This document shows positions 10,888 to 12,459 of a stretch of DNA of 64,000 nucleotides, piece after piece. Position 1 is the stretch's first letter. Every line of letters begins with the position of its first letter. Location: the NCBI RefSeq assembly GCF_055900595.2, contig NZ_CM148325.1; one strand, 5' to 3'. Position numbers and translations under genes: made by a program. The notes under the pieces are model-generated. The model was not told the origin of the DNA. It made no database searches and worked only from the letters and a program-made list of their open reading frames with translations.

Positions 10888-12459
10888 ATGAATGTGGAAA
10901 AATTTGACTGGACAGAAGAGTTACATCAGACCATGGTGAAGAGCCTGGTTACATCATTCGGGCTGGATTTTCTGTTGTTAAATGATCGTAAGGGTGGTGA
11001 TGTTGACACTATCCATAATGTGCGTAATGGCATTTATGCCACGGAGGCTGAGCGACAGCGGTATGAAGGTCGTGGCGACTATGATTCTCATCATTACCAC
11101 AGCCATGAGAACTACATCGCGACGAACCGGAAAGGAAAGCGTGCACATCAGGCAGGGACTCTTACTGATGCATATACAGGCGAAGTGTTTGCTTCAGACG
11201 ATAAAAAAAATCTGGATCATATTATTTCCGCTAAAGAAATTCATGATGATCCGGGGAGAATTCTTGCTGAACGGGATGGTGCAGAACTGGCAAATGACGC
11301 TTCAAATCTGGCATTCACACATGAGTCGCTCAATAAATCAAAGAGAGCTGACTCCATGGATGCGTTTATTTGCACACTGCAGAAAAACAGAGAAGATACG
11401 TTAAAGCAGATAGCAGAGCTTGAATCTCAGGCAACGCTGACAGAAAAAGAAAGGAAACGTCTGATAAGTCTGAGAAAAAAAGCTGATGCAGATACTGAGC
11501 GTATGGAAAGGGCTGATAAATATGCCCGGGAAAAATACGAGGCCACGATTAATCAGAGCTATTACCTGAGTAGTAAGTTTGCTACTGCTGTCGCCAGTGC
11601 TTCACTTAATTCCGGTTTTCGTATGGGGACGCGACAGATGCTGGGGCTTATTCTTGCCGAGATCTGGTTCGAACTGAGGGAACGAATCCCGCATATTATC
11701 AGGCAGCAACGGAACTCATTCAGTGCCGGCAAATGTCTGTCCGAAATAACGTCAGCATTACGTGTCTGCCAGAAACGAGTACAGGAAAAATTCAGTTCTT
11801 TTTTAATTGCCTTTAAAGATGGAGTCATCGGAGGGATACTGTCAGGTATTACCACAACGCTGTTAAATATATTCCTGACAACGGAAAGAATGAGTGTCCG
11901 GCTTATCAGGGAAATGTGGAACAACCTCGTTCAGGCCTTTAAAGTCCTGGTATTTAACCCGGAGGGATTATCGCCGGGGCAGTTAGCCAAAGCGGTCACT
12001 AAACTGATAGCAGCAGGTGTGGCTGTTGCCGGTGGGGTGATGATAAATGAGGCGATGGCGCAGATCCTTATTTTTCCATTTGGTTCAGAGCTTGCTGCCT
12101 TTTGTGGTGCGCTGACGACAGGTATTCTCGGGCTGGTGATGAATTATTATCTCGAATATAGCGAGGTTATGCAGCGGGTATGGGCATTTCTGGACAAATT
12201 TAAGGACAAATTCCAGCGGTCACTGGAATACTTTCAGGCAGTCAATGCTGAACTTGATCGCTATCTTGTGGAACTTACTGCACTGGAATTTTCTGTTGAT
12301 GCTGCCGCGTTAAATCATTTTTCACTTCATCTGGATAGCGTAAACAGTGAGATAGAGCGCGGACTTCTGCTGAGAGAAGAAGTCAGCCGACGAGGGATTG
12401 CGTTGCCGTTTGAGTCAGGAAATGTGGCTTCTGTTCGTGACTGGTTAAATAAGCGATGA
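10888..12459 (+). CDS. Two-domain protein: N-terminal HNH-like (His-Me finger) nuclease motif lacking zinc-ligand cysteines, plus C-terminal coiled-coil and transmembrane segments
   Basis: 523-aa ORF; residues about 95-155 read YTGEVF…NLDHIISAKEIHDD…DASNLAFTHESLNKSK, matching the HNH pattern (DHIxP … NLxxLCxxC[NH]xxK) with Cys replaced; C-terminal third has Gly-rich hydrophobic helices (GVIGGILSGITTTLLNIFL; LIAAGVAVAGGVMINEAMAQILIFPFGSELAAFCGALTTGILGLVMNYY). Confidence 0.7.
   Translation: MNVEKFDWTEELHQTMVKSLVTSFGLDFLLLNDRKGGDVDTIHNVRNGIYATEAERQRYEGRGDYDSHHYHSHENYIATNRKGKRAHQAGTLTDAYTGEVFASDDKKNLDHIISAKEIHDDPGRILAERDGAELANDASNLAFTHESLNKSKRADSMDAFICTLQKNREDTLKQIAELESQATLTEKERKRLISLRKKADADTERMERADKYAREKYEATINQSYYLSSKFATAVASASLNSGFRMGTRQMLGLILAEIWFELRERIPHIIRQQRNSFSAGKCLSEITSALRVCQKRVQEKFSSFLIAFKDGVIGGILSGITTTLLNIFLTTERMSVRLIREMWNNLVQAFKVLVFNPEGLSPGQLAKAVTKLIAAGVAVAGGVMINEAMAQILIFPFGSELAAFCGALTTGILGLVMNYYLEYSEVMQRVWAFLDKFKDKFQRSLEYFQAVNAELDRYLVELTALEFSVDAAALNHFSLHLDSVNSEIERGLLLREEVSRRGIALPFESGNVASVRDWLNKR

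Follow-up and report, generated by a model that had tools for sequence, protein, structure and literature searches.

The gene at positions 10888..12459 (+) of the stretch of DNA analysed here, a 64,000-nucleotide window of an Escherichia coli chromosome, encodes a predicted His-Me nuclease built into a membrane protein. This protein, hereafter B, is encoded by the third gene of a four-gene operon, W-A-B-C, in which W is a WYL regulator, A a membrane partner and C a small cysteine-cluster protein, and it is one subunit of a conserved multi-gene module. We propose, with a probability of about 0.55, that the module, with B as its nuclease subunit, is a horizontally mobile and uncharacterised anti-phage or anti-plasmid defence system. 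We infer this function from the genomic context and the predicted fold; the defence reading is favoured because of the carriage of the module by mobile elements, its neighbours in defence islands, its matches to PADLOC candidate systems and the precedents of the membrane-held nucleases SNIPE and Shield.

The open reading frame (ORF) of B runs from ATG to stop and encodes 523 amino acids; the identical RefSeq protein, WP_001696576.1, is named 'hypothetical protein'. The features of B considered below are the following:

10888..12459 (+): B, whose predicted His-Me/HNH-like nuclease domain is N-terminal and joined through a coiled-coil linker to a conserved, predicted polytopic membrane domain.
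10888..11487 (+): residues 1-200 of B, predicted nuclease domain, from conservation and the AlphaFold2 (AF2) model (predicted local distance difference test, pLDDT, 90.8).
11206..11343 (+): residues 107-152 of B, predicted beta-beta-alpha-metal core, from AF2, structure searches and conservation.
11824..11880 (+): residues 313-331 of B, hydrophobic helix 1 (VIGGILSGITTTLLNIFLT), with invariant G316 and N327, from hydropathy and conservation.
11992..12066 (+): residues 369-393 of B, helix 2, marginally hydrophobic and followed by a conserved FPFG turn (396-399), from AF2 and hydropathy.
12097..12153 (+): residues 404-422 of B, hydrophobic helix 3 (AFCGALTTGILGLVMNYYL), with invariant G412, from hydropathy and conservation.

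The original prediction had placed a cysteine-free HNH/His-Me motif at residues ~95-155 of B, and this part of it is borne out by the alignments. The homologue set comprised 79 sequences out of 80 species (Proteobacteria, Firmicutes, Spirochaetes, Desulfovibrio, Fibrobacter, Bacteroidota and Helicobacter), and an independent set consisted of 56 representatives of clusters at 50% identity. D110, H111, D121, N140, T144 and N149 are present in 79/79 homologues, the less strict positions being N136 (77/79), H119 (76/79) and K152 (66/79), and H111, N140 and N149 are likewise invariant among the 56 cluster representatives. The motif stretch, which runs from L109-D110-H111 to N149-K152 and contains the peptides quoted in the original prediction, shows the highest conservation anywhere in the soluble half of B; no cysteine occurs in residues 95-155. 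Its conservation is far beyond chance, and the succession of a D-H base, a structural Asn, a helix Asn and a terminal Lys corresponds to the pattern that had been read there. The comparison with colicin-type enzymes has to be abandoned, since the motif is of the D-H/N/N, Mg-type kind (Cas9/McrA/GmrD-like) and not the His-rich zinc site of colicin DNases. A second element of B is also fully invariant and comprises D33, the loop G36-G37-x-V39-D40-T41, Y65 and D94; its modelling is less confident (pLDDT about 60), and no counterpart to it was identified. A reading of B as a HEPN RNase through the Rx4-6H pattern of its RKGKRAH stretch was rejected: R81 is found in 40/79 homologues and H87 in 15/79, and the stretch is incidental because it is not conserved, as had been supposed.

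The predicted structures are consistent with this motif. The AF2 model of full-length B, built from a 56-sequence alignment, has a mean pLDDT of 84, and that of residues 1-205, built from a 41-sequence alignment, reaches 90.8. In both models D110-H111 end the strand 107-111, N140 lies just before the strand 141-145 and N149 is carried by the helix 146-152; N136 also precedes strand 2, and K152 is located on the helix of the core. The core adopts a beta-beta-alpha-metal layout, in which three short helices (115-135) lie between the two strands. The structural comparison that had been proposed as a check on the motif gave a result in its favour, with Foldseek recovering HNH nucleases at modest scores. 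Against the PDB, ranks 1 and 2 are the HNH domain of Neisseria Cas9 (E 0.44, probability 0.84), and the best specific matches are Cas9 HNH, DraIII, the Gme HNH nickase, McrA and endonuclease I/Vvn, interleaved with helical-hairpin matches that stem from the coiled-coil linker. The sole nuclease family matched by the sequence of B is Pfam GmrSD_C/DUF1524 (PF07510), where the whole protein scores an independent E-value (i-E) of 0.18 and the domain alone 0.022; across the family, 1/41 members reaches 2.8e-4. In the PDB, the domain profile of B reaches the DUF1524 segment of BrxU at an i-E of 4.3, and a distant relative of B, the prototype of the PADLOC family PDC-M40B, matches the PADLOC model HEC-05 at 4.5e-5 over its HNH region, the HEC-05 homologue chosen being 99.2% identical to BrxU. 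At the sequence level, B would be a marginal relative of the DUF1524/GmrD branch, with a Pfam score below significance. Taken together, motif and models argue for a His-Me finger in the N-terminal domain of B, belonging to the D-H/N/N type known from Cas9, McrA and GmrD, and for B as a probable DNA-cutting enzyme.

The C-terminal part of B contains the Gly/Ala-rich hydrophobic helices that had been described, on which Kyte-Doolittle hydropathy, the Wimley-White scale and AF2 agree (two to three helices at 313-422). The Kyte-Doolittle maxima over 19 residues are 1.69 (311-333), 1.71 (363-400) and 1.56 (388-423), averaging over the family gives the same peaks with maxima of 1.44-1.77, and AF2 models all three segments as long helices. 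On the Wimley-White octanol scale, residues 313-331 (-5.9 kcal/mol) and 404-422 (-4.6 kcal/mol) are both clearly membrane-competent, whereas residues 380-398 (-1.1 kcal/mol) are marginal. No signal peptide and no hydrophobic or transmembrane segment was found before the nuclease domain, which should therefore be cytoplasmic. If B has two true spans, its last 100 residues would be cytoplasmic as well; three spans would place them in the periplasm. The idea of a membrane-tethered nuclease is supported to the extent that computation can judge it: the two to three hydrophobic helices predict an association with the membrane. The C-terminal 300 residues, for their part, exceed the requirements of a mere tether. 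Judged from the alignment, this region is more than an anchor, with Y225, Y226, G253, E258, G316, N327, R341 and G412 invariant, a conserved FNP motif in addition to the FPFG turn, and conserved polar residues in and beside the helices. Structure searches returned no specific structural relative of the membrane domain in the PDB.

Various names have been attached to B that do not describe it. Homologues elsewhere in the databases are called 'cobalamin adenosyltransferase' or 'ATP--cob(I)alamin adenosyltransferase'; no adenosyltransferase match exists in Pfam, NCBIfam or the PDB, and the name is a propagated misannotation. An NCBIfam match to FtsW (20 bits against a cut-off of 337) is hydrophobic noise, and a search of PHROGs with B gave insignificant matches only. 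The family of B amounts to 855 clusters at 50% identity, and no Pfam family exists for either A or B, the two large proteins of the module.

The remaining features of the operon, which occupies 8817-12722 (+) of the window, are as follows:

8747..8763 (no strand assigned): perfect palindrome CTGACA-N5-TGTCAG, 10 nucleotides (nt) upstream of TATAAT (8773-8778) and 54 nt upstream of the start codon of W.
8817..9713 (+): W, helix-turn-helix (HTH)-WYL transcriptional regulator of 298 amino acids and first gene of the module, from PADLOC WYL models, PDB WYL chains and the RefSeq name.
9762..10841 (+): A, membrane partner of 359 amino acids, from PADLOC PDC-M09A (5.4e-22), hydropathy and a conserved motif.
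10849..10866 (+): stem-loop CCGGGC-GTTTAA-GCCCGG in the 46-nt gap between A and B, G+C-rich and with no T-run after it.
12456..12722 (+): C, CxxCxxCC (YkgJ-family) cysteine-cluster protein of 88 amino acids, from PF03692, the RefSeq name and eight invariant cysteines.

The identity of W is given by its matches to PADLOC WYL models (9.1e-21 and 1.4e-19, residues 9-288) and to the WYL-domain chains 7u02, 7tzv, 9cu3 and 8tp8 of the PDB (E 0.002-0.008, residues 148-288), of which 8tp8 was deposited as a 'DeoR-family transcriptional regulator'. RefSeq names it 'helix-turn-helix transcriptional regulator', and its orthologue in Pseudomonas matches WYL (PF13280) and, weakly, WCX. The palindrome upstream of W is a candidate operator for this regulator. 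Downstream of W, protein A has an N-terminal transmembrane helix (1-19) and a coiled coil; its Gly/Ala-zipper hydrophobic region (~117-205) carries the conserved motif ASTGTxIxxLSGxAAxNAxLAxxGGGSxAxGGxGxAxG, and its C-terminal domain is helical. A matches no family in Pfam or NCBIfam. The database name 'chemotaxis protein' has no profile support and probably comes from the coiled-coil similarity of A to methyl-accepting chemotaxis proteins. A weak likeness of the A-family profile (A residues ~147-262) to the fusion peptide and heptad-repeat-A of paramyxovirus F proteins (E about 6e-4) is almost certainly compositional, both having a hydrophobic, Gly/Ala-rich segment ahead of a coiled coil, and is not taken as homology. 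A further weak likeness of A is to the trunk/paddle region of LeoBC, a dynamin-like protein, with an E-value of 0.014 for the E. coli protein and 1.1e-5 for that of Vibrio cholerae. The stem-loop between A and B could be an element of mRNA processing or stability, or a weak attenuator. The idea that A and B are paralogues was rejected as unsupported: an early iterative hidden Markov model (HMM) of B matched A proteins, an effect that disappeared with HMMs built from true members only, for which B-to-A gave no match and A-to-B one borderline match (E 0.04); hhalign reached a probability of 31% only (A 199-270 against B 415-480), and BLASTP found nothing.

The start codon of C overlaps the stop codon of B (ATGA), which implies translational coupling, and the strict coupling of C to B suggests that C is a stoichiometric partner. 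Its family matches PF03692 with E<=0.001 in 15/19 members, the E. coli protein lying at 0.0011, its RefSeq name is 'YkgJ family cysteine cluster protein', and C9, C12, C15, C16, C35, C45, C55 and C82 are invariant. FliB binds a [4Fe-4S] cluster through a cysteine motif related to that of C (PMC8598068). On the 3' side of C lies a small ORF, 12775-13059, encoding a hydrophobic peptide of 94 amino acids, where RefSeq annotates a hypothetical protein of 65 amino acids at about 12862-13059; the Pseudomonas and Klebsiella versions of the module lack this ORF.

To survey the conservation of this gene order, the B alignment was run against a single genome of each species (GTDB), and our own HMMs were applied to the flanks of the 80 best loci. 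Adjacent to B, A is present in 79/80 species, C in 73/80 and a homologous WYL regulator in 47/80, and in 67 of the 73 species with C this gene lies within 30 nt 3' of B. Two orders dominate, namely W-A-B-C, mostly in Proteobacteria, and W-B-C-A in Firmicutes, Spirochaetes, Desulfovibrio and Bacteroidota. The four genes are also present in Pseudomonas fulva, inside an integrase/DUF3987 element, and on Klebsiella IncFIB plasmids. In the V. cholerae version (L093, 4648-9107), W and A are separated by an additional gene of 130 amino acids that matches TerB faintly, and the module adjoins BrxR and a BREX system (BrxF, BrxC/PglY). Further afield, the Aeromonas jumbo phages D3, D6, D9 and LAh10 (about 260 kb) carry a B homologue of about 30% identity, and at the one phage locus examined, that of D3 (L006, 3964-6575), an A homologue is located directly 5' of it. 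This phage-borne copy suggests a use in superinfection exclusion or another purpose on the phage side. On a plasmid-like contig (L007, 4883-9980), a B variant of 873 amino acids with a C-terminal extension of 350 residues is followed by a dynamin-like GTPase of 819 amino acids (LeoBC 3.9e-12, LeoA 1.4e-10), which replaces A and C; this locus adjoins a relaxase gene and ParE/YafQ genes. Given these variants and the PDC-M40 prototype described below, the constant unit is B with a membrane or regulatory partner, the A-B-C trio being by far the commonest form.

The module is mobile and strain-specific. It is present in 444/5426 complete E. coli genomes (8%), always on the chromosome, and strains such as APEC O2-211 and FEX669, most of them from poultry, share the 4.1-kb stretch 8700-12800 of the window at 100% identity. 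The module is inserted at either tRNA-Phe locus with an adjoining integrase; the FEX669 copy occupies the other tRNA-Phe locus, beside dsbD/cutA. In the window, the module lies in a tRNA-Phe island (within 1-17889); the G+C content here is 0.40-0.46, and past about 18 kb it is roughly 0.50-0.54. The genes around the module are these:

924-6314: scr sucrose-utilisation genes.
7593-8396: outer-membrane protein.
13125-14798: phosphoethanolamine transferase.
14942-15985 (-): TPR protein.
16447-17667 (-): integrase.
17814-17889 (-): tRNA-Phe.

The module is also found on 69 plasmids. In APEC O2-211, an S subunit of a type I restriction-modification (R-M) system lies ~10 kb upstream of the module, and known defence genes occur within 6 kb of it at 5/13 loci sampled from other species, a count that is indicative and not a statistic, the flank sample consisting of the largest ORFs and favouring big defence genes. 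The neighbours at these five loci are Azaca ZacB/ZacC; type III R-M; a GajB-like helicase with type IIG R-M; PprDinG; and a JetC-like protein. In one genome-wide association analysis (GWAS) of chicken E. coli, a 'WYL domain-containing protein', a 'chemotaxis protein', a 'cobalamin adenosyltransferase', a sucrose porin and hsdR were named as chicken-associated (PMC12987596). The first three of these genes are evidently W, A and B of the tRNA-Phe island under misleading names. The module is not among the systems of the recent defence discovery papers that were checked.

For the defence system proposed here, the following sequence of events can be hypothesised. W would set the expression of the operon, probably by repressing or tuning it, and possibly in response to single-stranded DNA (ssDNA) or DNA damage, like CapW, BrxR and DriD. 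A, B and C may assemble into an inner-membrane complex, in which B would be associated with the glycine-zipper protein A and the Fe-S or Zn protein C, and the His-Me nuclease would be held at the cytoplasmic face of the inner membrane, away from the nucleoid. Upon infection, B may cut DNA that enters through the membrane or lies at it, in a SNIPE-like manner; alternatively, B could be switched on by A or C, cut any DNA and abort the infection. We put forward more tentatively, and as a possibility somewhat against the odds, that A, as a partner with a glycine zipper and a dynamin-trunk-like part, senses membrane perturbation or genome entry and that C, as an Fe-S protein, gates the cutting by B at the membrane, which would make the module an undescribed immune machine distributed from Proteobacteria to Firmicutes and Spirochaetes and carried by jumbo phages. 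Several points weigh against the defence proposal as a whole. The membrane insertion of B is predicted from hydropathy only, with one marginal helix, and the bias of the flank sample towards large genes tempers the argument from defence neighbours. The PADLOC families matched by the module, PDC-M09 and PDC-M40, are themselves mere candidates, and no paper describing the module was found in the literature, the GWAS table being its sole mention. At the phage D3 locus no W or C homologue was detected, and the minimal unit or its role may differ. Finally, A and the conserved membrane domain of B could be the effector, for instance as a pore, the nuclease being secondary.

This last point leads to the proposal of a membrane-disrupting abortive-infection module, in which A and B would form a pore or remodel the membrane and the His-Me domain would act as a DNA sensor or secondary effector. 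It would account for the conservation of the B membrane domain beyond the needs of an anchor (E258, N327, R341 and the FPFG turn), for the extreme conservation of the Gly/Ala-zipper motif of A and its weak LeoBC likeness, for the dynamin-like GTPase that takes the place of A beside the 873-residue B variant on one plasmid, and for the TerB-like gene added in V. cholerae. We nevertheless consider it unlikely: the D-H/N/N residues are invariant across phyla, which is unexpected for a pure binding domain and speaks for a nuclease that is active even under this proposal, the structure searches gave no match to a known pore-forming toxin, and the LeoBC likeness of A may be compositional, arising from a coiled coil and a hydrophobic stretch. 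A different role for the partners is envisaged if the operon is an addiction or toxin-immunity module, in which a toxic B would be checked by A and/or C and the genes would persist by post-segregational killing. The presence of the module on islands, plasmids and phages and the translational coupling of B and C fit such a role, as does the PDC-M40 prototype, which pairs its HNH-transmembrane protein with an SMI1/KNR4 (SUKH-type) protein; members of this family are typically immunity proteins in polymorphic toxin systems. It seems quite improbable, however, that addiction is served by four genes that include a WYL regulator and encode two large membrane proteins, a set exceeding the needs of known toxin-antitoxin systems, and the frequent co-location with R-M, BREX, Azaca and Gabija-like genes also speaks against it; toxin-antitoxin and defence roles are in any case not mutually exclusive.

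A further explanation takes the module as an accessory of DNA damage or DNA uptake, that is, a WYL-controlled membrane nuclease comparable to EndA in pneumococcal transformation, or a component of a genotoxic stress response. DriD and DdaA, which are WYL regulators, act as activators of DNA-damage genes and show a response to ssDNA, also in natural transformation (PMC13010146), the module is common in the competent genera Acinetobacter, Moraxella and Haemophilus, and V. cholerae endonuclease I is among the structural matches of B. Such a function is highly doubtful when set against the patchy, strain-specific distribution of the module (8% of E. coli; islands, plasmids and phages), unlike that of a housekeeping pathway, against the many non-competent taxa that carry it, and against neighbours that are defence genes and not competence or repair genes. 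It is very improbable, at last, that the N-terminal domain of B is not a nuclease and has another metal- or ligand-binding fold, B then being a membrane sensor or transporter subunit: the D-H, N and N residues are invariant and match a His-Me finger in identity, spacing and secondary-structure position, and several independent methods converge on HNH or GmrD-like enzymes.

The reading of W-A-B-C as a defence system would have consequences for a field in which membrane-associated immunity is among the least understood bacterial defences, with few membrane-held nucleases studied (SNIPE, Shield). The module is widespread and compact: it is found in many phyla, on plasmids and in jumbo phages, and besides its WYL regulator and its cysteine-cluster partner it has catalytic residues that are plain to see. 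As a defence system, if it is one, it would represent a new architecture, a His-Me nuclease built into a conserved membrane complex, and would raise the question of the job of an Fe-S or Zn protein in a membrane nuclease complex. Should A indeed sense and C gate, this would constitute a new defence family whose activation principle, a membrane-coupled nuclease under metal-cluster control, would likewise be new. At the minimum, about 8% of complete E. coli genomes gain a corrected annotation, and three 'chicken-associated' GWAS genes are explained as one island-borne module.

Among catalogued systems, the closest to B is PDC-M40 of PADLOC, whose PDC-M40B model it matches at 4.6e-42 (B residues 11-425, profile positions 19-436 of 547). 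The prototype of this family, located on a Klebsiella pneumoniae IncFIB plasmid (L090, 4418-6644) and bracketed by insertion sequence (IS) elements, is an HNH-transmembrane protein of 564 amino acids with the same layout as B, in which a GGxVxT loop at the N-terminus is accompanied by the D-H...N...N motif, by a linker and by hydrophobic helices, with only about 25% identity. Its gene is preceded by that of a 169-residue SMI1/KNR4-like protein, PDC-M40A (2.3e-75), whereas the module described here has A, C and W instead, among which no match to PDC-M40A was found. A, for its part, matches PDC-M09A at 5.4e-22, and neither B nor C matches the PDC-M09 models even at E<=1. Because PDC-M40A is absent, the locus is not an instance of PDC-M40, and because PDC-M09A is the only PDC-M09 component matched, it is not demonstrably one of PDC-M09; it is best described as a hybrid of two catalogued candidate families. 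These PDC families are candidates from a 'guilt-by-embedding' screen, which considered genes lying within BREX, DISARM, type I R-M and Hma systems.

With the type IV restriction and BREX-associated enzymes GmrSD, BrxU and SspE, B has in common the cysteine-free (D/E)-H...N...N motif, DHIYP in BrxU and LDHIIS in B, and in BrxU the Asp and the His are required for defence. In contrast to these enzymes, the predicted domain of B is N-terminal and fused to a membrane region, and it has an extra conserved loop (D33, GGxVDT). B is not a GmrSD enzyme because it has no DUF262 domain; neither B nor its neighbours gave a match to this NTPase (GmrS) in Pfam, NCBIfam or PADLOC. The AF2 model of B also resembles the solved HNH nucleases (Cas9 HNH, DraIII, Gme HNH, McrA and endonuclease I/Vvn), which have a beta-beta-alpha-metal core with D-H on strand 1 and an Asn on the helix.

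The functional precedents are found elsewhere. SNIPE, a GIY-YIG nuclease bound to the membrane, cuts phage DNA while this is being injected; its anchoring prevents self-cleavage and positions it where phage DNA enters, and it becomes toxic once the anchor is removed (bioRxiv 10.1101/2025.11.03.685801). B has no homology to SNIPE, which is a single protein with an N-terminal transmembrane segment, a DUF4041 and a C-terminal GIY-YIG domain. In B the order is reversed, the nuclease being N-terminal and the membrane region C-terminal, the predicted fold is His-Me, and two further subunits are conserved by synteny. A second type of nuclease, the RmuC domain, is of the PD-(D/E)xK type. In Shield, the membrane-bound RmuC nuclease ShdA degrades DNA, provides phage defence and lowers transformation, with modulating accessory genes (PMC10270631). 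ShdA is unrelated to B in sequence and differs from it in that its domain is RmuC and not His-Me, in its unrelated partners and in that Shield has no Fe-S protein. It can be surmised from these comparisons that the kind is already known, a nuclease-based, membrane-associated candidate defence; what is new is the module itself, for whose A and B proteins no curated family exists.

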